Positions 3,657-33,254 of a stretch of 64,000 nt of DNA are shown here, piece after piece (position 1 is the first letter of the stretch; each line of letters opens with the position of its first letter). Location: contig BAAIJX010000025.1 in NCBI GenBank assembly GCA_054600435.1, positions 186,001 through 250,000 on the forward strand, read 5' to 3'. Below the pieces are notes generated by a model. It ran no database searches, had not been told where the DNA came from, and saw only the letters and a list, made by a program, of their open reading frames with translations. This DNA comes from Neophaeotheca triangularis. Its lineage: Eukaryota. Made by a program: the position numbers and the translations under genes.

Positions 3657-4401
3657 TTGCTCTGAGAAGGGGAGGATGACATGAGATGCCGCTGTCAGTC
3701 GTTTGCTCTGGTACTTTGACATGTGAGTGAGAAATGGAGCCAAACACTCAAGGGTGTAGGCCGGGCAAAGGCAGTCATGTGCGGCCAAGCATTCCTTGGC
3801 GGTGCATCTCGCTCGTTCATATTGCCAAGGCTTCCTAGGAATAGCACTCCTAACTAACTTTACATCACTTGCCGGGGACACTTGGGCGATTAGGCTTGAC
3901 GATAGCTAAAGGCAGAGTCGGGCGCGCGCCAAGGGTTCATTCCGTGAGCCAAGTTTCCGGCCGCATTTGCTCCTATTTGCACGTAGTCTAAGCGCACGGC
4001 CATTGCTGGCTATTGTGTAGTAACCGTGGCGATCTTGGTTGGCTTGAATTACGGGCCCAGGAGGTAGGACAAGGGATGATTCGGGGACACTCGTCGGGAA
4101 GAACGGCTGCTCCGGGCGCGGCACAATTGGACAAGGGTGATGAGTGGCCTCAGGGCAATACACAGTAGAGGGCCCTGAGATGTGGCCATGTCAAACCGCT
4201 GAGATAACAGTTTCAAAGCCTCGGTGGACCTCGACGACTTGATATACATCGTCAGCCGCAGTAATTTGTGAAAGACGGCGAACAAAAAAATCAAAGTGAT
4301 GACCTAGTGCAAGATAAGGGAGCATTTCTTACCATCTAATGTTTGTGTGTTCGTCCTCAAATCGCGCCGTTCACTTCTTCAAGCGCTGAATAATTTCACA
4401 C

Positions 4402-5535
4402 TCATTTGAGCCCAACCCAACTCAGCCAGCCACTGCTACCCTGCTTTCCAAGGCTCTGACCGTCAACCGAGGCCTCTGAGGGCCGGGACACGCCACCGGC
4501 TTGGATCATTTTTTGACCAGGTTTGAGTTCGATGATGGACGTAGTCCCGAAGTGACGTCTCTTCTCCTTGACTACCTCCAGTCCCGTCCTCGCTGCGGCC
4601 TCATCCACGATATCGCCGATTTCTCGATTGAACCAGCAGCCATGTATCTCGGCATGCTTTTCCGCCGAGCTGTCGAGCGCCCGGTTCAACCAATCGCGTG
4701 AACTACGGCCATGCTCGAGCAATAGAATGCGTGCCTTTGGGTTGGAAGCATCAAGATGGGCAGCGAGATTCACCAGGAGGGCTGCAGGATCAGGGGTCGA
4801 GCAAAGCCCCATGGTCTGGATAATGGTATCATACTTCTTGCCGGCCTTGTCAGCGGGCGCCAATGGCATCGGACCCAGAGCAGAGCCCGTCAGAAAGCGA
4901 ATGCTCAATCCAGGTTTGAAATTGCTCCGGCTAACGTCCGCCTGATGCGCTTTGATCGCATTCCCATGCAGCGCGTCCCATTTCTTCTTGCACAGCTCCA
5001 CCATGGTCGGGCTCAAATCGACAAACGTCAAACTGTCTACGTCGGCTCCTTTGCTGATGTCGTAGTAGCCCAAGTTCCTACCAGTCCCACAACTCGCTTC
5101 CAGGACATGGCCGCTACACTGCTTGGCTAATTTTTTGCGGATGCCGTTAATGCCCATGAGGAATTCCGAAAATCCAACTTCGCTATCAAAGTTGTCGGCT
5201 ATCTCTTCGTAGCGGGAGGAGACATCCTTTTGACGGTCGAGTTTTGCGACATCAGGATTATTGCAGGGTTGATTGAGCGCCTGGAAGATTCGCACGAGGT
5301 AGAAACTCATCCCCCCGGCGAACAGGGACGCTACGATCCATGGGAAAGCTCGACCTCCGTGCGGAGCCCATTTTGGGAGGCCATGTTCCTCTTTTGGACC
5401 GACTTTCGGGTCGGTCGGTTTATTTTGTAGTGGACTTTGAGATTGGACGAATGGTTGGCGGAAAGTCGCTTCTCTCGGGCGAGTCTTTGGGATGACCCTG
5501 GCGACGCTTCTCCCTGTAGTTTTGGCTCGTGACAT
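4402..5535 (-). CDS. OMS1: Mitochondrial SAM-dependent methyltransferase OMS1-like
   Basis: Basic N-terminus and one TM segment, then VLEASCGTGRN (SAM motif I), YDTIIQTMGLCS, LLLEHGRS and HGCWFNR. Confidence 0.8.
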   Translation of the reverse strand: MSRAKTTGRSVARVIPKTRPREATFRQPFVQSQSPLQNKPTDPKVGPKEEHGLPKWAPHGGRAFPWIVASLFAGGMSFYLVRIFQALNQPCNNPDVAKLDRQKDVSSRYEEIADNFDSEVGFSEFLMGINGIRKKLAKQCSGHVLEASCGTGRNLGYYDISKGADVDSLTFVDLSPTMVELCKKKWDALHGNAIKAHQADVSRSNFKPGLSIRFLTGSALGPMPLAPADKAGKKYDTIIQTMGLCSTPDPAALLVNLAAHLDASNPKARILLLEHGRSSRDWLNRALDSSAEKHAEIHGCWFNREIGDIVDEAAARTGLEVVKEKRRHFGTTSIIELKPGQKMIQAGGVSRPSEASVDGQSLGKQGSSGWLSWVGLK

Positions 5536-5947
5536 GAGCTGGCTACGAGCAAGAGCAGCGCTTGTTTCAGGACACGAGGTTGCAGTCGATGGTTTCTAGA
5601 GAGAAATGAACGGCAAAAGAAGGGATGAAGTCGGAGCTGTCCGCAAGTCGATGCGGCCTCGGCGACCCCAGACGACGAAACCTTGCTCAGCGATTTCTTG
5701 GCCAAGGTACTGTACCATATTGCGCGCGCCCTTTGCTGAACATGTTCATCGCACTATATCCAAGCGAAGGCGGATCGCTTGTCAATCTGCAATACAAATA
5801 CGTAGGTGTACGTTCCATCTCCCTGCTCCTTCTTCGTGCATTTTCTCACTGGACTTCCATTGGCTTCAACAGCCCAAGGAAACACATACAAAGCCTACAT
5901 CTTAGCGGACGGACATTGTACATACAAGCAAGAAAGAGCATACAATC

Positions 5948-7351
5948 ATGGCCACCCAAACACCCTCCTCGATCCTCATCCTAGGCTCCGGCGTCTTCGG
6001 CCTCTCAACCGCGCATAGTCTGGCAACCCGCCCCGAGTACGCCAACAGCCAAATCACCCTACTCGACCGCTCAACAATCCCAGCCCCAGATGCGGCAAGC
6101 GTAGACAGCAGCCGCATCATTCGTGCTGACTACGCCGACTATGCTTACGCCTCCCTCATGACCGAGGCCGCCAAACACTGGCGCGGCGAGTTCGGCGCCG
6201 AGGGACGTTACGACGAGTCGGGCTTGTGCATCACCATCGAGGACGCCGGTGGGGATGAGGGAGGAGGTAGGGCGTACATGCGTAAATCGCTGGAAAATGT
6301 GCGTCGGCTTGGGCTGAAGGTCGGAGGGGTGGAGGAGGGGAGGAGAAAGGATGGGAGCGCCCAAGTCAGCGTACTGGACGGGCAGGAGGATGTCCGGAGC
6401 GCTTTACCGGGGTGGAGAGGCATTGGCGGTAGCAGGGGGTATGTGAACTGGACGTCCGGGTGGGCGGACGCGGAAGCCGGAATGAAGCACATGCGGCGCA
6501 AAGTGGAAGCGACAGGGCGAGTGGACTTCCGGCGCGCAGAAGTCGCCCGCCTAATCTACGCCACCGACCGCGTCGAAGCCGTCGAGCTCACTTCGGGCGA
6601 GCGCCTAACCGCCGACCTCATCGTCCTCGCCACCGGCGCCTGGACCCCCAAATTCCTCGACATGCGCGGCATAGCCTCAACCACCGGCCAGGTCCTCTGC
6701 TACACCGACATCACCGACACCGAACAGGCCCAACTCCGCCAAAACCCCGTCCTACTAAACGAAAGCACAGGCATGTTCATCATCCCGCCCGCGCACAACG
6801 TCCTCAAAGTCGCCCGCCACGGCTACGGCTACGCCAACCCAACCAAAATCCCGCACCCGGAAAACCCCGGTGGAGAAGAAATCACAGTCTCGCTCCCCTG
6901 GACCCACCTCGACGACCCGGCCCTCGCGATCCCCGTCGAAGGCGACCGCGCCTGCCGCGCCTTTTTGCAAACCTGCATAGCCTCGGACCCCGCCTTGCAG
7001 GACCTGGCGACGCGCCCCTGGTCCCACACGCGCATTTGCTACTACTCCGATACGCCCTCGGGAGACTGGGTCGTCTCTTATCACCCGCGGTACCGGAATT
7101 TGTTCGTCACGGCGGGCGGCTCGGGGCACGCGTACAAGTTTTTGCCCGTGGTTGGGGAGAGGATTGTCGACGTTATGAGGGGCGAGGCGAGGGATGGGTT
7201 GGGGAGGACGCTGGAGGACAAGTGGCGCTGGCCGGAAGCGAGGGTGCGGGAGGATCATATTTGGACTGGGGATTGGAGGGGTGGGCGGAAGTACATGGTT
7301 TTGAAGGAAGAGTTGGCGAGGGGAAGACGCGATGGTGAGGCGAAGATGTGA
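5948..7351 (+). CDS. FAD-dependent oxidase, sarcosine/pipecolate/fructosyl-amino-acid oxidase family, probably peroxisomal
   Basis: ILILGSGVFGLSTA (GxGxxG), ASVDSSRIIRADY, RICYYSDTP (covalent-FAD Cys region), GGSGHAYKFLPVVG, and C-terminal AKM (PTS1 variant). Confidence 0.88.
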   Translation: MATQTPSSILILGSGVFGLSTAHSLATRPEYANSQITLLDRSTIPAPDAASVDSSRIIRADYADYAYASLMTEAAKHWRGEFGAEGRYDESGLCITIEDAGGDEGGGRAYMRKSLENVRRLGLKVGGVEEGRRKDGSAQVSVLDGQEDVRSALPGWRGIGGSRGYVNWTSGWADAEAGMKHMRRKVEATGRVDFRRAEVARLIYATDRVEAVELTSGERLTADLIVLATGAWTPKFLDMRGIASTTGQVLCYTDITDTEQAQLRQNPVLLNESTGMFIIPPAHNVLKVARHGYGYANPTKIPHPENPGGEEITVSLPWTHLDDPALAIPVEGDRACRAFLQTCIASDPALQDLATRPWSHTRICYYSDTPSGDWVVSYHPRYRNLFVTAGGSGHAYKFLPVVGERIVDVMRGEARDGLGRTLEDKWRWPEARVREDHIWTGDWRGGRKYMVLKEELARGRRDGEAKM

Positions 7352-7950
7352 GGGGTTTGTGGCGAGTGTTGAGGCTTCTTGTGGAAAGGGGGTTTGTTGT
7401 TGCTCGGGCCGTATTTTACTGGGGCTTTGGTTGGGGTGGAGTATCAGAAGATGGGTCAATGTGTTGGATAGATACCAAAGAATTGAGAATTCAGAAGGCA
7501 ATGAGGCCCTTGGGTGTGCTAGTAGGGCATCAATCTTAAATCATCAGTAAATCAGAATGTCGCGAATGTGCGTGAGTGAAAGCACGCGAGCACCGAATGT
7601 TGGAACAGAATCTTCGCCCATCGACAAGGACAGCCCCAGGCCGCCACAAGCGAGTAGAGGAGATTAAAGTACAAGCTGTATATATACAAGAGCGTTTCAT
7701 GCCACTCGCGAGCTCGCGCTCAAACAGTAATAGCAGTCTTTCATCATCAAGATGTTCGGCCGTGTCCCAAAAAGTTCCTACGAGTACATTCGTTTGCTTT
7801 TTTCGCCAGAATTCGAAACACTTTATTGGTCAGTCTTTTGGTGTCAGAGGGTTATCTCTAGCTTTCTAGCCAGCGAGAGATGTCAAAAAAGATGTAAGAG
7901 GAGGATACGAAAGTGAATTTGGTCTCCAGCCAATCCCGCATGTTCCAAGT

Positions 7951-9334
7951 CTAGTCAAACATGTCGTCCAAGTCGCCCAGCTCAACATTTTCCGGACTGA
8001 GGAGGGGATCATCGAAACAATCATCGTCTGTTTGCGGCTCTTTGGAACGGGTACGAGGGGCGTCGAGGTCGATGTGATCCATGATGACGTCCTGGCTGTC
8101 GACGTGAACGCGCATACCCTCCTGGGGCGCAATCATCGGACTGGTGAAATCCATGGCGTTGGTAGAGGGTTCCATCCCGCCTGAATGCCCGAAAAGCGAC
8201 GCGGCAAACTCTTTGTTTCTCAAAGCGGCGTGCTCTTCGCTCTCTGTCTCCACCGACATTGCCACGCTCCCATCATTCTCGGCTCCTGATTCAACCTCCC
8301 GTCGCTCGACTTTGACGGCTTGTCCGAGCTCACCGCTGCGACGTTGCTGGTATTGCTCGTGTAGTGCGTTGGCCGTTTGCTTGAAGTCCTTCTCTTCGTG
8401 TTCTAATTGTGGGCTAACCGCGCGTCTGTTATGCGCAAGGTTGCTGAGGGCGCCTGGATGCTCACGGGATATAGAGTTCCGAGCGGAGAAGGAGCTGGCT
8501 CTCGTGGGTTCTGAATCAGCCTCCTGTTCGTCTTCTAGTTCGGGGGAGGATAAGTCGACTTCTGGTGAGGGTGAAAGCGCAGTACGAGCTCTGGTAAGGT
8601 GGGTTTCCTCTTCATCTGCCGCGGACGCCGAGGAGATTGAAGGTGAAATGATACGGGCAGGTTTCAAAACGGGTTCTGGAACTTCTGGAATCGCTTGGTG
8701 TGGACTGGTTGTGAGGTAGAAATACAAGCGTCTGGGGTGGACGGGTGAGAGGTCTTTTGCCAAAGGACAAGGGCCGACGGCGGGCCACGGTCGGTTGAGG
8801 TAAGCTGTGAGTCGGGAAGATATTAGGGCAGAGGGGTTCGCAGATCTGGGCGAGCATGTTAGTATCGCATCATCGACGAGGAGGGATCGAGGTGGTGTAT
8901 TACCTCTCAATCATGTTGACTGTAGGGGCCAGGGCAGCAGCAAGCTCCTTGACGAGATGCGGCCTGTTGCCTGTTTTCTCCAACTGTTGAATGGCAGCGA
9001 CGACAATGCCATCGTTGATTCCCTCGGTATCAATCTTGCTCGCGCCTTCCCTGCCTGGGCTGGGTGGAGGGGACAGCTCAGCAGCGCGCGACGCGGGCGT
9101 TGGCTTCTCTTCCTTGATCCGTATTGTTGGTGTTGATGTTGTCCGTGGTGGGCTCATGGATGCCGGAGACGGAGCTCCAGATGCATGCGAGCGCTTCGAC
9201 TTCTTGACCGGAGGCTCGTCCCCTTCTGCGATGGTGCTGGGCGGTGATGGATGGGAGATGGCACGCGAGCGTTTCGGGACGGTGATGCCAAGCTCAGATA
9301 GGGAGAGCGACTTGCGCCTTGTGTTGTAGGGCAT
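7951..9334 (-). CDS. GDS1-like winged-helix protein; exons 9334-8904, 8845-7951
   Basis: MPYNTRRKSLSLSELGI..QLEKTGNRPHLVKELA is joined through a 58-nt intron (GTAATA..CTAAC..CAG) to SANPSALISSRL..HPRRLYFYLTT. Ends LLSPENVELGDLDDMFD. Confidence 0.75.
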
Positions 9335-9774
9335 GATTTGTCGCGGTGAGTTAGGTATGGTCGGTCGAGAGGGAGAGGTTTGTTTGTGTTAGGTTCGGGG
9401 TCGACGCGTTGTCAAAAGACGGTCGTCAGTCGATGGTGTGGCAGGGCAACAAGGAACAAAGTCGCAAAGGCAGCAGCTACCTTGACCTTGGACGGAGGAC
9501 AGGGCGAAAAAAGGCTGGCAGGGCTAAGCTGCAGCTACAGTATATTCAACTATGTTGACGGTCAGACAAGAATGCTGGCACAAGAAGAATTGAACGGGCG
9601 TGGTCCAAGGGATTGGTCGGTCGGTCGGCGACGTTGCGACCTTGCATATGCTGGCTGCAGAACCAAGGCAAGGTGAGAGAAAGGCGAGGACGAATGGTGG
9701 TGGGGCGGTATGATGTGTGATGTGTGATGTGTCGTCGTCGGTCGGTGTCGTGGCGAAAAGAAGGGGAGAATGGT

Positions 9775-15307: not shown

Positions 15308-16483
15308 ATGCCGCCTCAAATCAAGCAAGACATTAACCGCTCCGGTTGGGAGACCACCGACATGCCCTCCATCTGTGAACGCTGCCTCCCCGACAACCGA
15401 TACGTTCAGTTCCTCAAAGAAGATTACGGCAAAGCTTGCTCAATCTGCACTCGCCCCTTCACCGTTTTCTACTGGAACTCCGACCGCAACGCGAAGAAAA
15501 AATCCACCGGCATCTGTCTCACTTGCGCTCGCATGAAAAATTGCTGCCAGTACTGCATGCACGATTTGAGCTTTGGGTTGGCTTTGCCTGTTAGAGATGC
15601 TGCTCTCAAGATGGTCGCGCCTGGCCCGCAGAGTGAGGTGAACAGAGAGTACTATGCTCAGAACCGCGAGAAAGACATTGAGGAGGGAAGGGGCTTGGAG
15701 GGGTATTCGGAAACCGACGAGAAGGCCAGAGATTTGTTGAGGAGATTGGCCGAGCAGGAACCGCACTACAAGAAGCAGAGGCGCCTCGAGCTGGAAGCGG
15801 CAGAAGAGGCGGGGGGGAAAGCTGGGCAGAAGCTTTTGGAGAGCAGCGCCGCGGCCGGACACACCACTGGACCTGTGCGCATGGCAGACACAAAGCAACG
15901 TTCCGCCTACGGCTCGCCTTACAGCACCGCGAACCGTGGTGGCGCATCTTCGCGCGGCGGTGCACAAGCAGCCGGCCGCAAAGCCTTCCCCTCCGCCGCA
16001 GCTGTCCCAATCAAACCCGCCGACATTGCTCCCCCAGCCGATAAGAACATCACTTCCCTCTTCGTCACCGGCGTCGAGTCTGACCAGCCCGAACACAAGA
16101 TCCGCACGCACTTCGAGCAGTACGGCCAGCTCCGCTCCCTTATCTGCTCCCACCGCTCTCACTGCGCTTTCGTCAACTACGTCAAGCGCGAGGATGCCGA
16201 GAGCGCCGCTGCAGCTTGCCAAGGCAGGGCAATAGTCGGCGGCGTACCCCTGAGGGTGCAGTGGGGTAAGCCAAAGCCGCTGGATAACCTGGACCAGAGC
16301 GAGAGGGTCAAGAACGCACGAGCCGGCAGGACTGTCAACTCGAAACCCACCGGACCAGCCGGACAGGCTCAGCAGGCTATTGCTGCTGCGGGCGAAGGAC
16401 AGGGTCAGAATCTCGACGCTTTGGTTGCTGCGCCGCCGCCTGGTCAGGGCGAGGTGCAGTACCCTTCCATGGCTGGGGAGTAA
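15308..16483 (+). CDS. SLT11: Pre-mRNA splicing factor Slt11/Ecm2 (RBM22 family)
   Basis: WETTDMPSICERCL, CSICTRPFTVF and CARMKNCCQYC zinc motifs, plus an RRM (ITSLFVTGV..CAFVNY..LRVQWGKP). Confidence 0.93.
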   Translation: MPPQIKQDINRSGWETTDMPSICERCLPDNRYVQFLKEDYGKACSICTRPFTVFYWNSDRNAKKKSTGICLTCARMKNCCQYCMHDLSFGLALPVRDAALKMVAPGPQSEVNREYYAQNREKDIEEGRGLEGYSETDEKARDLLRRLAEQEPHYKKQRRLELEAAEEAGGKAGQKLLESSAAAGHTTGPVRMADTKQRSAYGSPYSTANRGGASSRGGAQAAGRKAFPSAAAVPIKPADIAPPADKNITSLFVTGVESDQPEHKIRTHFEQYGQLRSLICSHRSHCAFVNYVKREDAESAAAACQGRAIVGGVPLRVQWGKPKPLDNLDQSERVKNARAGRTVNSKPTGPAGQAQQAIAAAGEGQGQNLDALVAAPPPGQGEVQYPSMAGE

Positions 16484-17263
16484 AAATCAAGTGTGTACGA
16501 AGAGCATACAGTTGCCTGGTCACACGCAAAAAACTGCGAAGACGTCACGCTCGGGTGCTGAAGATAGGATGGTATGAACAAGTCAAAATTAGCGAGGCGT
16601 TTGGCGTAAGACAGTGGGCGAAAAAGACGAGTCTCACGAAGGAGAAGCAATCAAGCGGGCTTACTAACCTCTTATTTGCGTGCTATAGTTAGGAAATGCA
16701 AAGTCATTATAGGAAACAAAAGATGTTCAAGTATGAAAAAAGCACGACTTGAGTGCTGATGGGGACATGGAAGCGCCTACCTGTGTAATCATGAGCCTCG
16801 AACTCTTACCCCTTAACACAAGTATGGCGTTTAGTACTGTTAGGACAAATTTACGTGGACCTAAATGCCGATCATCGTATATCTTCAAATTGTTGGTCCA
16901 GTGGCATCGCATGTCCCGGGGAGACTCTGCCAGAGCTTTCTGCTTTTCGTCAAGCCCTTAACGCCCTTATCTAACAGAGGGAGGGGGGTGGTTAAAAGCT
17001 ATAGAGGACCGAGCTTTCAGCCCGATGCTAGCGCGCTTTGATACGCAGCCAATGGCAGGCGTGGGCAAGGTGTTGGGCTAGTGTTCCGGTTTCACAGCCT
17101 TCAGGTGCTGGGTGTAAACTGTTTGCACATGGTTGTTCTAATGATTGCAAATTAAAGGCAAATTTTGAGGTTCACAAAGATCTCAAGCCCGATCGTACAT
17201 TCTATCTGCCTGCGCTCTACTGCGCCTCTTCTTTTCGGCCCACGATGACGAAGGTAGCTCGAT

Positions 17264-28769: not shown

Positions 28770-29367
28770 TGTTGGTAATCGATTGCAGACAGGCTCGTCG
28801 ATTTTGTTGTTGGGGATTGTGGTGTTTTGGTCGCGGCAGTGGGGAGTAGGGGAGACTGTGAGTAGGACGTAAAAGGGTGTGAGAGTTTGAGTCGAAGATT
28901 GTAGATGGCAGGAGAGCTCCTAGGTATATCTAAACACCTACCTTTAGTGACATACACTACATCGTTATGAGGGCATTGCTCTAGGGACTATAGAGGCCTC
29001 GTGGTGGGAAACAAAGCAAGTTGACTACTCCCTGTGCAGATAACGAGGTAAAGTGTGTTTGAGTTCTTCTCGTCACAAACGGGCTGAATTTGTGAAGCAT
29101 GTTCCCCCGAGGCCTTGTATTTAATACACATCAATAGAGCAGGAAGTCTTTCGAGTCTTGTGACAAAGGCGCCGTTCCAGGAGCTCGTCATCTCGTATGA
29201 TACGCGAAATAAAAGGAAAAGAGAAGAGTCTGTTCGAGTTGCTGTATCTCAAACCCGAGCCCTAAAGCCACCAGCTGAAAGTGAGGCCAGCCGTTTCTGA
29301 CGTCGCATGACAACATGACGTTGGACCTTGCACTTCAGAAATTTATAAACCGCACACGCTTTTTGAA

Positions 29368-30366
29368 ATGGAGCGCTCTCATCACCACCACCATCGGAGC
29401 GAGCGTAAAAGGTCCCGTTCACCCCGAAACGATGGTCACCGAGAGGATGTGAAAGCCCAACGCTCACGGTCTCCGCACCGTAGACGCCACCACCACTCCC
29501 GTCGAAGGGACTCTCCTCCAAAGCCGGTCGCTGTATTGCCATGTCATGCTCAACATCTACACAAGCGTGACTTTGAGCAATACAAGGCTCTCTTCGCCGA
29601 CTATCTCGACCTCCAGAAGCAACTCGACTTGAGTACGCTGAGTGAGGATGAAACAAAGGGCCGCTGGAAGAGCTTCCTTGGCAAGTGGAATCGCGGAGAG
29701 CTGGCCGAAGGATGGTATGACCCAGGCAGCAAGCAGAGGGCAGACGATAGAGCTGCCGAAGACGATCAAATGATAGCATTGCCTCTCTCAAGGCCCGCTA
29801 CCGAGGCCGCCCCCAAGCCAACACCAGCCAGGGTGCAAAGTGACGAAGACGAAGACGAGGATGACTTCGGCCCCGCTCTTCCCAAGCAGTCGTCCAAGTC
29901 AGGCCCTAGGGTCCCCACCTTAGAAGATCTAGACTATCGTGGCGAGCTCGTCGACGAAGACCGCGCCGCCCAACGCGCCGATCTACGCTACGAGCGAAAG
30001 CAAGATCGGCAACTCCAAAAGGAACGTCTAGAAGAGCTCGCACCCCGCGCAGATCCGGGCTCGCGTGAACGCCAGCTTGAGAAGAAGCGTGAGACCACTG
30101 CTGCCAATCGTGCTTTCCGCGACGCCAAGTCGCCTGGCGCAGAAGAGATTGGGGAAGCCGATCTTCTGGGCGACGATGCCGATGCCTTGAAGAAGGAGAA
30201 GAGGGAGATGCAGAAGAAGAAGAGTGAGCGAGAGATCAGGAAGGAGGAAGTGCTTAGAGCCCGGCAAGCTGAACGCGAGGAACGTTTGGCTGAGTATAGG
30301 GCCAAGGAGGAAAAGACCATGGACATGCTTAGAGGCCTGGCCGCCCAGCGATTCGGAAAACGCTGA
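29368..30366 (+). CDS. Conserved nuclear charged protein (SCI1/'HEL117'-like family)
   Basis: RS/H-rich N-terminus, FADYLDLQKQ..KGRWKSFLGKWNRGELAEGWYDP, ERLEELAPRADPGSRERQLEKK and a coiled-coil C-terminus. Confidence 0.75.
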   Translation: MERSHHHHHRSERKRSRSPRNDGHREDVKAQRSRSPHRRRHHHSRRRDSPPKPVAVLPCHAQHLHKRDFEQYKALFADYLDLQKQLDLSTLSEDETKGRWKSFLGKWNRGELAEGWYDPGSKQRADDRAAEDDQMIALPLSRPATEAAPKPTPARVQSDEDEDEDDFGPALPKQSSKSGPRVPTLEDLDYRGELVDEDRAAQRADLRYERKQDRQLQKERLEELAPRADPGSRERQLEKKRETTAANRAFRDAKSPGAEEIGEADLLGDDADALKKEKREMQKKKSEREIRKEEVLRARQAEREERLAEYRAKEEKTMDMLRGLAAQRFGKR

Positions 30367-30454
30367 GGTTGCTTTGGCTTCCATCGCAGTTCAATTGGTA
30401 AGTCAAAACTCATATCCTCATTCACCCAGCAGCGTCTCGAAGTCCGAGCATGAC

Positions 30455-30537
30455 ACGATGATATCAATGTCCAAATATGTTTCAAGACGGGGCGGAGAGA
30501 CTTTCGTCTCATTGAATGATACTACATTTCTTACTGA
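30455..30537 (+). ncRNA. Candidate intronic box C/D snoRNA, copy 1 (LSU rRNA guide TGTTTCAAGACGGG)
   Basis: Degenerate C box ACGATGA 30455-30461, guide 30478-30491 followed by g-CGGA (D'-like), D box CTGA 30534-30537. Lies inside the intron GTAAGT 30398..GCTAAT..CAG 30610. Confidence 0.6.
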
Positions 30538-30758
30538 TATCCTGCATTCGAGCCACAATATGCGTGCTGAGCAGTCACAAGCGGGGAGCTAATATGTCTT
30601 CGCACTCCAGAACCACTCTTCGCCTTATTTCGTACGGCAGGATTTGCCGACGAGCCGACAATTGGGCGACATTGCAACCATCCGCTGGACGCAGCAGCAC
30701 ACAGACCGCGTAAGTTGCCACTTCGTTATGCTTCCACCTGCTTGACACCAAACACGCT

Positions 30759-30839
30759 ATGATGAAGTAAACTACCTAATATGTTTCAAGACGGGCCACA
30801 TAGGGCTCGCCTCTCTGAACGATGATAGTTACCTACTGA
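30759..30839 (+). ncRNA. Candidate intronic box C/D snoRNA, copy 2
   Basis: Canonical C box ATGATGA 30759-30765, the same guide at 30782-30795, D box CTGA 30836-30839. Lies inside the intron GTAAGT 30710..GCTAAC..CAG 30915. Confidence 0.7.
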
Positions 30840-31508
30840 TGCTTTGCAATCCTTTTACCAATGTCACTCAATAACGGCCTTTGGGAAGATTTGAGCTAAC
30901 ACGCTTATGCAACAGATACTAGCACTAACACCATCTGCTAAGTGCTGCGACTGCTACGCTGCGTACCTAGATAGAGACTGTAACATCTTCCAAAGTTAAC
31001 CCTTAATACCATGCCATCATTGGGTTTACGAGATCGCTGTGATCTCATTGGCAGTCCCTCTGTTTGCATTGCGATGCCACCTAAAGTCGAATTGACAAAG
31101 CCACATTCATCCATTCGGCACCAGAAAAGGTAGATCGATGACATTGCTCACGGATGAGGCGTAGTTTCAACACCACTGAGCTGGCGACATCAGCGACCCG
31201 TGATCAACATAAGAGAAAGAAAAACGTACAAAGTCTACACCATGGTCCACGGATGGTACAAGCAAGAGAAAGGAGGAAGAAAGCACAACAACCACCTCGG
31301 TCCTCGAAACCAGTCTCAGTACCGGGCAAACCGCAAATTCAGCACTACGACGCAAAACCGCCAACAACCGACCTCTCTCCAGACACCCCCCGGATGCCGC
31401 AGCCACAGCCTTAAATTCCCTCCAACCCCGCCTCGTCTCGTCTCGTCTCGTCTCACCTCTCACCACTCCCGGAAAAACCCCCTGCCCTCCAACCTGAGTA
31501 CCGTGCCG

Positions 31509-33254
31509 TTAACATATCCCCCCGAACTTCATCGCTGGACCTGCTCTCCCCGCTGTCATCGTCACGGTCGCTAAGCGGCAATGGTGGTGTGATGATTGCC
31601 ACCGGTGGCGAGAGGGCGCTGGGGTTTTCGTCGTGGTGGGCGGAGGAGCCGGTCGGTATGCGAGCGCGATGGTTGCTGGGAAGGCGGCGTGTTGGGAGCG
31701 GGATTCTGGAGCGCGGCGGTTGGGGGGTTCGGGGGAGTGGGTTCCTATGGTGGAGGGGGGAGGGGGGGGGTTTGACGCGTTTGAGGTTGTGGAGGCGGGG
31801 GAGCTGGGAAATTGCCCAGGCATGGAGCTGTGGGAGGCAGGGGGCAGTTGGGGGTTGAGGTTTGAGGTAGGCTGAGTTGTTGTAGGCGGCGAGGGACTGG
31901 CGGGTACTTCTAAATGGTTCTGGGATATGCGTGTATTGCTTGCCATTGCCGTGGAAGGAGTGTCGTGCGAAGAGGTGTTGTCTGCTCCAGATGGCAGCGT
32001 TTGGTGTTCGATTCGACCATCACGGAGTAGATCAATCAGTCGACCCACCAGCTGTATCAATCTCGCTTCTTTGCGAGTAGCTACGACTAGTTCGGACAGC
32101 TCGGCCTGCTGTCCATCACGTCCTTCCTCAACTCTGGGAACAGCAGCTGGGACATCGGCAGAAGGCCCCGAGCCTGCAGGAAGCATATCCGAACGTCGAA
32201 CCAGCTGCTCGCTCACGCCCTGAGCCCCTGCCACACAAGTGCCGCCATCGAAAAGTCGACAAAACTCCGGAAACTCCGTCCTCAAAAGCGACTCCACGTC
32301 CACGCCCGGCCTGGGCAACGCTCCCCCAGCAGACCCAGCAGGCTCGAGAGACTCGCCCGTCGGTTCGCTGGCCTTATCAACAGCCGTCACATTTCCAAAC
32401 CCAAAAGCCTGCTCCAGCAGCGGATCCCGAGGCCGCGCAGACTCCAGCTCTCTCAAGGGCACAACTCTCCCGCTCCCAGCGGGAATCCGCGTGGCCGTGA
32501 AAGGCGGACCCCGAGGCGGCGCGAGATGGAGGATCCTCTTGGGCGCAACTCTTCCGCTCCCGGCCGGAATGCGTGTGGACGTCCAGGGGTTTAAGTCCCC
32601 ATCTTCCGCGCCAAACTCGCTCCGACGGCGAAGGGGTCTGGGAGCCGGTTGCCAGAGTTTCGGGGCCGCTTCTACCGCGGGTGCTAGGGATAGGAGCGGT
32701 AGTGGCGTCCAGGGGACTTCTTGTGCTGTTGAGGGCGTCCCGGAGAGAGGCGGGATCGGCGAGATAGGGCCAGCGGCACCGGGAGCCGGTCTCAGGACAG
32801 GGGTACGAGTTGGTTCGTTCCTTTCTGTCGATGCGGCGACTTGCTCGCCCAGCTCCCGAGTTTGGTCCTCCACTCGGCTGCTCCTAGCCCCTGACCAGTC
32901 GTGAGACCTGGTCTCCCATATTGGGAGACGGTGAAGCTCGTTAAGCTCTTCTTCTTCATCTTCTTCATCGTCGGCTTCGTTGCCGGAGTCGTTGTGATTT
33001 GCAACTCCCGCGACGAGGGGCTTTTCCTCGCCATGCTCTGAGGAGCCAAGTCTATCTTGGCTAGAATAGGTAATTTGATCGGTTGATAGAGTTCGAGAAG
33101 TGAAGTCCGTAGAGGGGTTCTGAAGTGTTGTGTCGTTGATTTGATTGTCCTGCGACGGATGGGAGCGTGATATTGCTTCCAAGTTATGGAAGGGGGTTTG
33201 CTTGTTGCTAGTTGGAGGCTTGCCGTCAGTGCTGGAGTCCTTGGGAGCGGACAT
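31509..33254 (-). CDS. Orphan, largely disordered Pro/Ser-rich protein (581 aa)
   Basis: Long ATG ORF in CAACA-ATG context with an acidic patch, an internal TRIPAGSGRV duplication and an SMPGQFP motif. No recognisable domain. Confidence 0.5.
   Translation of the reverse strand: MSAPKDSSTDGKPPTSNKQTPFHNLEAISRSHPSQDNQINDTTLQNPSTDFTSRTLSTDQITYSSQDRLGSSEHGEEKPLVAGVANHNDSGNEADDEEDEEEELNELHRLPIWETRSHDWSGARSSRVEDQTRELGEQVAASTERNEPTRTPVLRPAPGAAGPISPIPPLSGTPSTAQEVPWTPLPLLSLAPAVEAAPKLWQPAPRPLRRRSEFGAEDGDLNPWTSTRIPAGSGRVAPKRILHLAPPRGPPFTATRIPAGSGRVVPLRELESARPRDPLLEQAFGFGNVTAVDKASEPTGESLEPAGSAGGALPRPGVDVESLLRTEFPEFCRLFDGGTCVAGAQGVSEQLVRRSDMLPAGSGPSADVPAAVPRVEEGRDGQQAELSELVVATRKEARLIQLVGRLIDLLRDGRIEHQTLPSGADNTSSHDTPSTAMASNTRISQNHLEVPASPSPPTTTQPTSNLNPQLPPASHSSMPGQFPSSPASTTSNASNPPPPPSTIGTHSPEPPNRRAPESRSQHAAFPATIALAYRPAPPPTTTKTPAPSRHRWQSSHHHCRLATVTMTAGRAGPAMKFGGIC

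Follow-up and report, generated by a model that had tools for sequence, protein, structure and literature searches.

Predicted box C/D snoRNAs with the U21 guide in two introns behind an SCI1-domain gene of Neophaeotheca triangularis, and their likely relocation within a conserved ascomycete family

The box C/D snoRNA U21 (SNORD21, Rfam RF00068) is intronic. In human 28S rRNA, Gm1316 is assigned to SNORD21 and lies 10 nt ahead of Am1326, the site of U18 (SNORD18) (PMC11550049). The table of S. cerevisiae 25S modifications in PMC5699541 opens at m1A645 and Am649 and has no entry at G639. The U18 site of N. crassa is Am635 (PMC2780460). Intronic box C/D snoRNAs are described from N. crassa (PMC2780460) and A. 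fumigatus (PMC2377427), and these resemble the RNAs reported here in class, in length (approximately 70–100 nt), in their intronic position and in their frequent use of D' guides. The tables of the same two papers, with 55 and 27 box C/D snoRNAs, respectively, give no methylated G at the position 10 nt upstream of the U18 site, and seven supplementary text files of the N. crassa paper do not contain the guide described below. The A. fumigatus set includes ten orphan snoRNAs, three of which are known only from 23–24-nt clones (PMC2377427). Two A. fumigatus orphan families are conserved across Pezizomycotina according to a fungal snoRNAome with 68 box C/D families, the main text of which does not use the name U21 or SNORD21 (PMC5824354). 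No C/D snoRNA is among the 17 structures of PMC8216456. In the literature searched, no description of a fungal U21-type snoRNA is found. Two further phenomena are relevant to this locus. The intragenomic mobility of snoRNAs is described as 'constrained drift' (PMC3511168), and introns in the 3' UTR can trigger EJC-dependent nonsense-mediated decay (NMD) in N. crassa (PMC7746235, citing Zhang and Sachs 2015).

The window analysed here is a 64-kb stretch of a Neophaeotheca triangularis contig. In the window, two predicted introns follow the stop codon of a putative host gene and each contains one copy of a predicted box C/D snoRNA (Table 1). The host protein is a conserved ascomycete protein, and its best named matches have approximately 55–60% identity and come from Dothideomycetes. 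Two marine metatranscriptome contigs match parts of the host coding sequence exactly in a comparison over positions 28900–31500. In two marine metatranscriptome runs, 0.11 and 0.06 of the words are present; this coverage lies within pieces of the coding sequence and includes no joint. The initial annotation had placed both introns, with their splice and branch motifs, at the positions given in Table 1, and these are confirmed. The gap between the stop codon and intron 1 is 31 nt and not the 32 nt it had reported. Its description of the introns as unusually long is only roughly correct, since a motif scan gives other, unverified candidates of 200 nt in the window.

Table 1. Features of the window, in order of position.
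Feature	Position	Strand	Description
Intron-like stretch	4238..4332	-	95 nt, GTAAGA..GCTGAC..AAG, 69 nt past the methyltransferase stop, without snoRNA
Methyltransferase gene	4402..5535	-	Homologue of the gene preceding the snoRNA intron in 9/31 loci
FAD-dependent oxidoreductase ORF	5906..7351	+	Stop to stop; adjoins the methyltransferase gene, as in homologous loci
GDS1 winged-helix gene	7951..9379	-	Beyond the oxidoreductase here; immediately 3' of the snoRNA at homologous loci
Putative host gene	29368..30366	+	Intronless, 332 aa, SCI1_hairpin domain (PF27660)
Spacer, stop to 5' splice site	30367..30397	+	31 nt
Predicted intron 1	30398..30610	+	213 nt, GTAAGT..GCTAAT..CAG, branch motif 30588-30593; sequence motifs
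Predicted snoRNA copy 1	30455..30537	+	Pattern, alignment, family model 64.3 bits (training-set member)
Copy 1 box C	30455..30461	+	
Copy 1 guide	30478..30491	+	
Copy 1 box D'	30493..30496	+	CGGA
Copy 1 hairpin	30497..30510	+	
Copy 1 box C'	30513..30519	+	Split
Copy 1 box D	30534..30537	+	
Middle exon	30611..30709	+	99 nt, non-coding
Predicted intron 2	30710..30915	+	206 nt, GTAAGT..GCTAAC..CAG, branch motif 30895-30900; sequence motifs
Predicted snoRNA copy 2	30759..30839	+	Pattern, alignment, family model 45.8 bits (training-set member)
Copy 2 box C	30759..30765	+	
Copy 2 guide	30782..30795	+	
Copy 2 box D', option 1	30797..30800	+	CACA
Copy 2 box D', option 2	30799..30802	+	CAUA
Copy 2 box C'	30816..30822	+	Split
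Copy 2 box D	30836..30839	+	

Both copies contain the same 14-nt guide, TGTTTCAAGACGGG. It is part of a shared 18-mer that begins at positions 30474 and 30778 and has no further occurrence in the window on either strand. In copy 1, box C is ACGAUGA, which differs by one change from the consensus RUGAUGA; in copy 2, it is AUGAUGA. Box D is CUGA in both. With both terminal boxes included, the predicted RNAs measure 83 nt (copy 1) and 81 nt (copy 2). The guide lies 40–42 nt 5' of box D and ahead of box D'. Two spacings proposed in the initial annotation are borne out by measurement: the GATGA core of box C is 16 nt from the guide in both copies, and box D lies 50 nt (copy 1) and 55 nt (copy 2) ahead of the branch motif, against a proposed 50–56 nt. 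The combined pattern of box C, guide and box D has two matches in the window and a mean of 0.00 in 100 shuffles. By one strict pattern, the window contains no other intronic C/D candidates. In single-strand folding, neither copy is better than its shuffles (z of -0.51 and -0.46). The prediction that both copies are intronic box C/D snoRNAs is supported by sequence, and the corresponding claim of the initial annotation agrees with the conserved boxes, register and intron context of the homologues described below.

Metagenome contigs were scanned with a box-plus-guide pattern designed to leave out rDNA, and 90 loci were recovered. Membership of the family was judged by eye on the sequence around the guide, with 45 nt on its upstream and 62 nt on its downstream side. 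Forty-three of the 90 loci form one family, with 31 distinct sequences after collapsing. The scan picked loci by the guide and is blind to relatives without the snoRNA, and its pattern demanded the GAUGA core and CUGA, so that their invariance among the homologues is by construction. A 5' splice site upstream together with a branch site downstream is present in 26 of 29 testable distinct members and in none of 45 other matches; this test is independent of the choice of members, which were fixed before the flanks were viewed. Box D lies a median of 53 nt from the branch motif (range 47–78, n = 30 family loci), and the family introns are 173–241 nt long (n = 29). A sequence-only family model, trained on 30 loci and the two window copies, gives all 43 members at least 34.7 bits and nine other loci at most 25.8 bits. 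The loci kept out of the model (38 of 90) include 13 members, of which only L082 and L086 are not near-copies of training sequences. The conservation in relatives that the initial annotation had named as a check is thus found in 31 distinct loci, with boxes, guide and intron context.

Proteins encoded next to the family loci are filed under, or clustered at 90% with, proteins of Extremus, Friedmanniomyces, Sphaerulina and Staphylotrichum. These genera belong to the Dothideomycetes and Sordariomycetes, and the family spans at least these two classes. One member, L009, is a Chaetomiaceae-like locus. No second snoRNA copy is found at the homologous family loci. A conserved second guide ahead of box D was considered and rejected: the alignment contains none, and the matches of 10–12 nt to rDNA differ between contigs. 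Pair counting on three badly placed columns of the gappy hairpin does no better than its controls (90–132 of 500) and is given no weight. At two further loci, L026 (2775-2883, +) and L084, a D-like box of imperfect sequence comes after the guide; their intron context is unclear and they are placed outside the family.

Over 14 nt, the guide pairs without mismatch with four rDNA contigs from other organisms, which are strays in prokaryote assemblies retrieved by the target motif itself and which we take to be large-subunit rDNA, in line with a matching S. pombe fragment. Under the D'+5 rule for the methylated base (PMC2780460), the position opposite is a G six bases ahead of m1A. Chaetomium m1A is 633 (PMC12723226), and this G corresponds to position 627 in Chaetomium and 639 in yeast. 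The predicted target of copy 1 is therefore the equivalent of yeast G639, Chaetomium G627 and human G1316. The 10-nt spacing between Gm1316 and Am1326 matches the spacing in the target motif. Two statements of the initial annotation hold in these comparisons. The guide that it ascribed to vertebrate U21 is present as an identical 14-mer in the Rfam SNORD21 consensus, and the supposed lack of a counterpart in S. cerevisiae is congruent with the yeast table, which has no modification at the predicted site.

The closest described system is SNORD21/U21. In both, a single base separates the 14-nt guide from a D-type box (CUGA in the Rfam consensus), and the predicted site is the same, human 28S Gm1316. 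The guide of U21 lies ahead of the terminal box D, whereas that of the window family lies ahead of box D'. The same guide and the equal site make the family a predicted functional equivalent of U21. The term 'U21-like' in the initial annotation is appropriate in this sense; as a statement of orthology it is unsupported, given the guide before D'. The search against Rfam that it had recommended was negative: the window has no match at the thresholds, a local search at E values up to 10 returns one chance match, and RF00068 (gathering threshold 63 bits) has no match in the window, even at E 10, or in the 38 family loci scanned. The U18/Nc CD46 snoRNAs (yeast Am649, Cm650) share with the family a D'-type guide to an adjoining, overlapping stretch of rRNA, but differ in guide and target base. 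The family is apparently absent from Rfam and from the tables and texts of the fungal surveys consulted. There is some chance, well short of even, that it is already catalogued. The two A. fumigatus orphan families, compared by description only, could be the U21-type family.

A different arrangement is present in L011 (370-464, +) and in the two copies of L073 (248-318 and 908-978, +), where a U18-like guide lies before D' and the U21 guide lies directly before box D. These RNAs are in repeated eukaryotic clusters that do not look intronic, and they are outside the family. L011 is the only RF00068 match among the scanned loci, with 36 bits against the threshold of 63.

In the 31 homologues, box D' lies one base past the guide. 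It is NUGA in 16 (5 CUGA, 7 UUGA and 4 AUGA), and the remaining sequences have CGGA (9), CAUA (2), CAGA (2) or another tetramer (2). No other individual box D' sequence is as frequent as CGGA. The D' variants are associated with particular C' variants, counted without correction for relatedness: CGGA occurs with split UGAAUGA in 10 of 10 cases, CAUA with UGAACGA in 2 of 2, and UUGA, by eye, mostly with UGAAAC. Copy 1 combines CGGA with the split box C' UGAAUGA, has a hairpin between the two boxes and is an ordinary family member. The initial annotation had read CGGA as a degenerate D' box and a possible sign of decay, which is not congruent with its frequency in the family and its constant association with one box C' variant. 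In yeast tests, divergent D' boxes and C' boxes with insertions of 1–2 nt direct methylation (PMC3116282). In one homologue, L012 (2288-2369, +), an extra G is present between the guide and a box D' of the CAGA type; this base reflects either a 1-nt slip in nature or a fault of the assembly.

Copy 2 reads C-CA-CAUA past the guide and probably carries a 2-nt CA slip at D'. Its two options for box D', CACA in the family register and CAUA two bases further on, each leave a three-pair stem. Copy 2 is the more diverged second copy, with a disturbed box D' register, and may be decayed, unchanged or shifted by two bases. The two copies have no similarity in their flanks or exons (459 and 343 of 500 shuffles equal the intron flanks), which indicates that the duplication has some age and led to the rejection of a very recent tandem event. 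In a ranking of relatives, copy 1, L048 and L016 tie for copy 2, and copy 2 comes tenth of 32 for copy 1, so that the two copies may or may not be each other's nearest relatives.

The host gene in the window is unusual for the family. An SCI1-domain host is encoded at none of the 90 family-scan loci, in a search that included a positive control. Upstream sequence of at least 900 nt is available for 23 of the 31 distinct loci. A methyltransferase gene precedes the snoRNA intron in nine of the 31, with its stop codon 78–185 nt before the 5' splice site; one of the nine is the distant locus L057 (38–43% identity). In seven, the snoRNA faces away from a palmitoyl-thioesterase gene, presumably PPT1. 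At one locus each, the gene ahead of the snoRNA encodes a TPR protein, a transcription factor or a sugar transporter; at one further locus each, the snoRNA faces away from RPS19 or has GDS1 downstream only. The host is unassigned for ten of the 31. The initial annotation had missed the wide distribution of the family, the unusual choice of the SCI1-domain gene as host and the presence of the usual host elsewhere in the window, with an empty intron-like stretch behind it. At L056 (3001-3075, -), the gene for a long TPR protein, which we assume to be SKI3-like, ends 34 nt before the apparent beginning of the intron. This is a second case with nearly the geometry of the window, although the call of the 5' splice site is less sure.

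The window also contains a homologue of the methyltransferase gene, which we take to be OMS1-like, and an intron-like stretch lies past its stop codon (Table 1). The order of the methyltransferase, oxidoreductase and GDS1 genes at 4402-9379 differs from that of the homologous loci as one inversion would give, and the breakpoint would lie just past the intron-like stretch. An unfiltered scan of the window with the family model detects only the two copies, with the next best match at 5 bits, and there is no snoRNA in 4238..4332. This stretch is a probable emptied donor intron. A triple of this kind is uncommon by chance (approximately 2%), with 77 cases among 4000 random positions and 82 among 4000 two-letter block shuffles. 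One of 23 other ORF ends tested has such a triple as well, however, so that the empty intron may be due to chance. In midpoint-rooted trees with no strongly supported branch, L057 falls outside the group that contains the window methyltransferase. The snoRNA has probably moved out of the older post-stop intron of the methyltransferase gene, approximately 25 kb from its present site; both the relocation and its direction are inferred from synteny. The route would have been DNA duplication, retroposition into existing introns or transposition of whole introns. As in 'constrained drift', the snoRNA would have swapped its host gene with its function kept (PMC3511168). Here, by comparison, the old and new sites are 25 kb apart on one contig, both are post-stop, and the old intron is apparently empty. 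Within the intron-like stretch, short reverse-complement matches to part of the guide (7 nt) and to a box C hexamer are present at 4290-4265 (-), at chance level by a rough estimate.

The preferred explanation is that both introns encode members of one box C/D snoRNA family kept in filamentous ascomycetes, that the RNAs are processed, that copy 1 guides methylation of the G639 equivalent, and that the snoRNA was relocated with loss of the donor. The probability of this reading is put at roughly 0.8. Its observed basis is family conservation, intron context, box register, complementarity and gene neighbourhoods, and processing and methylation follow from established snoRNA biology. After splicing, each intron would be debranched and cut back to an RNA of approximately 85 nt. 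This RNA would bind the box C/D proteins and pair over 14 nt with the large-subunit pre-rRNA, and fibrillarin would add a 2'-O-methyl group to the base that faces the fifth nucleotide ahead of box D'. The snoRNA would have been copied out of the intron past the methyltransferase stop codon and into the sequence that follows the SCI1-domain gene, and the original would then have been lost, with a shortened intron left behind.

Several alternatives concern what the two RNAs do. That the signal is a chance match or a fragment derived from rDNA would fit the lack of an Rfam match, but it is ruled out by the shuffles (0.00 matches), by the family scan and by the intron-context test: boxes and intron context are conserved in 31 distinct loci, and similarity to rRNA is restricted to the 14-nt guide. 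A role of the RNAs as non-methylating chaperones of rRNA folding, which the initial annotation had raised for one copy, is very improbable. The boxes CGGA and CACA do deviate from the CUGA consensus, but NUGA stands at a fixed register in 16 of 31 homologues, human rRNA is known to be methylated at the predicted base, and divergent C'/D' motifs are active in the yeast tests (PMC3116282). It is rather doubtful that copy 2 is a redundant copy that is losing its function, with only copy 1 methylating. Copy 2 has the lowest model score among the training sequences (45.8 bits), stands alone among 33 sequences in having CACA at the D' register and has a weak D'–C' hairpin (-2.0 against -7.3 kcal/mol). 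Its guide, box C, box D, splice signals and spacing from box D to the branch motif are nevertheless intact, and this, together with the dissimilar flanks, suggests selection since an old duplication. Retargeting of copy 2, in which the CA slip shifts a CAUA box D' by two bases and the methylated base to a C two bases upstream (the equivalent of yeast C637), is quite unlikely. Its box C' UGAACGA is otherwise found only with D' CAUA (L016 and L062), a three-pair stem begins right after the CAUA two bases further on, just as it does in L016, and the two added C's lengthen the pairing to 16 bp on rDNA contig L092 (one added C gives 15 bp on L094). Against this, GG is present at the two rRNA places in only 3 of 45 rDNA contigs and GA in 32, the unshifted CACA register also yields a three-pair stem after one mismatch, and no homologue has the same shift; the 1-nt slip of L012 brings no such gain.

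Another alternative concerns the transcript that carries the introns. They may be part of an independent non-coding host RNA whose start lies at, or within, the 3' end of the upstream gene, in which case they would not be 3'-UTR introns of its mRNA and there would be no control by NMD. At the loci where the snoRNA faces away from the palmitoyl-thioesterase gene (7 of 31) or RPS19 (1 of 31), it must have a non-coding host of its own. At L061, GDS1 is retained downstream with no methyltransferase gene within 3 kb upstream, and the upstream partner differs between lineages. The gaps between stop codon and splice site are short, however (31 nt here, 34 nt at L056 and 78–185 nt at the methyltransferase loci), and a promoter would therefore have to sit within coding sequence. 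In addition, no shared upstream 7-mer stood out in 27 loci, nor did a ribosomal-protein promoter motif. A separate transcript is accordingly considered unlikely. A reading in which the snoRNA moved and changed its job is decidedly improbable: in it, the ancestral intron would persist empty, two complete introns would have landed behind an unrelated gene, possibly by whole-intron transposition, copy 2 would be retargeted to the C637 equivalent, and splicing would place the new host under NMD.

If the introns are on the host mRNA, the junctions lie 31 and 130 nt past the stop codon. The likeness to NMD through 3'-UTR introns in N. crassa is in the position of the introns after the stop codon, which is predicted here. 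The mammalian NMD rule refers to a junction 50–55 nt past the stop codon; in the window, the second junction is at 130 nt, whereas the first, at 31 nt, falls below this distance.

The family adds a widespread group of box C/D snoRNAs that Rfam and the fungal surveys consulted have apparently missed. An rRNA methylation that is lacking in S. cerevisiae is accordingly predicted to be common to animals and filamentous ascomycetes. One contig contains the probable old site, the new site and a duplicated, diverging copy, which makes it a compact case of host and target change. If copy 2 is retargeted, a new lineage-specific rRNA methylation (the C637 equivalent) would lie next to the old one. The box C/D class and snoRNA mobility are already known, and the degree of surprise is moderate.

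Two other features are present in the window. A 581-aa proline/serine-rich ORF (31509-33254, -) is convergent with the snoRNA host and has no Pfam match. An intron-like stretch, GTAAGA..ACTAAC..TAG, lies at 16607-16690 (+), approximately 120 nt past the stop codon of an ORF ending at 16483, and is due to chance or represents a further post-stop intron.
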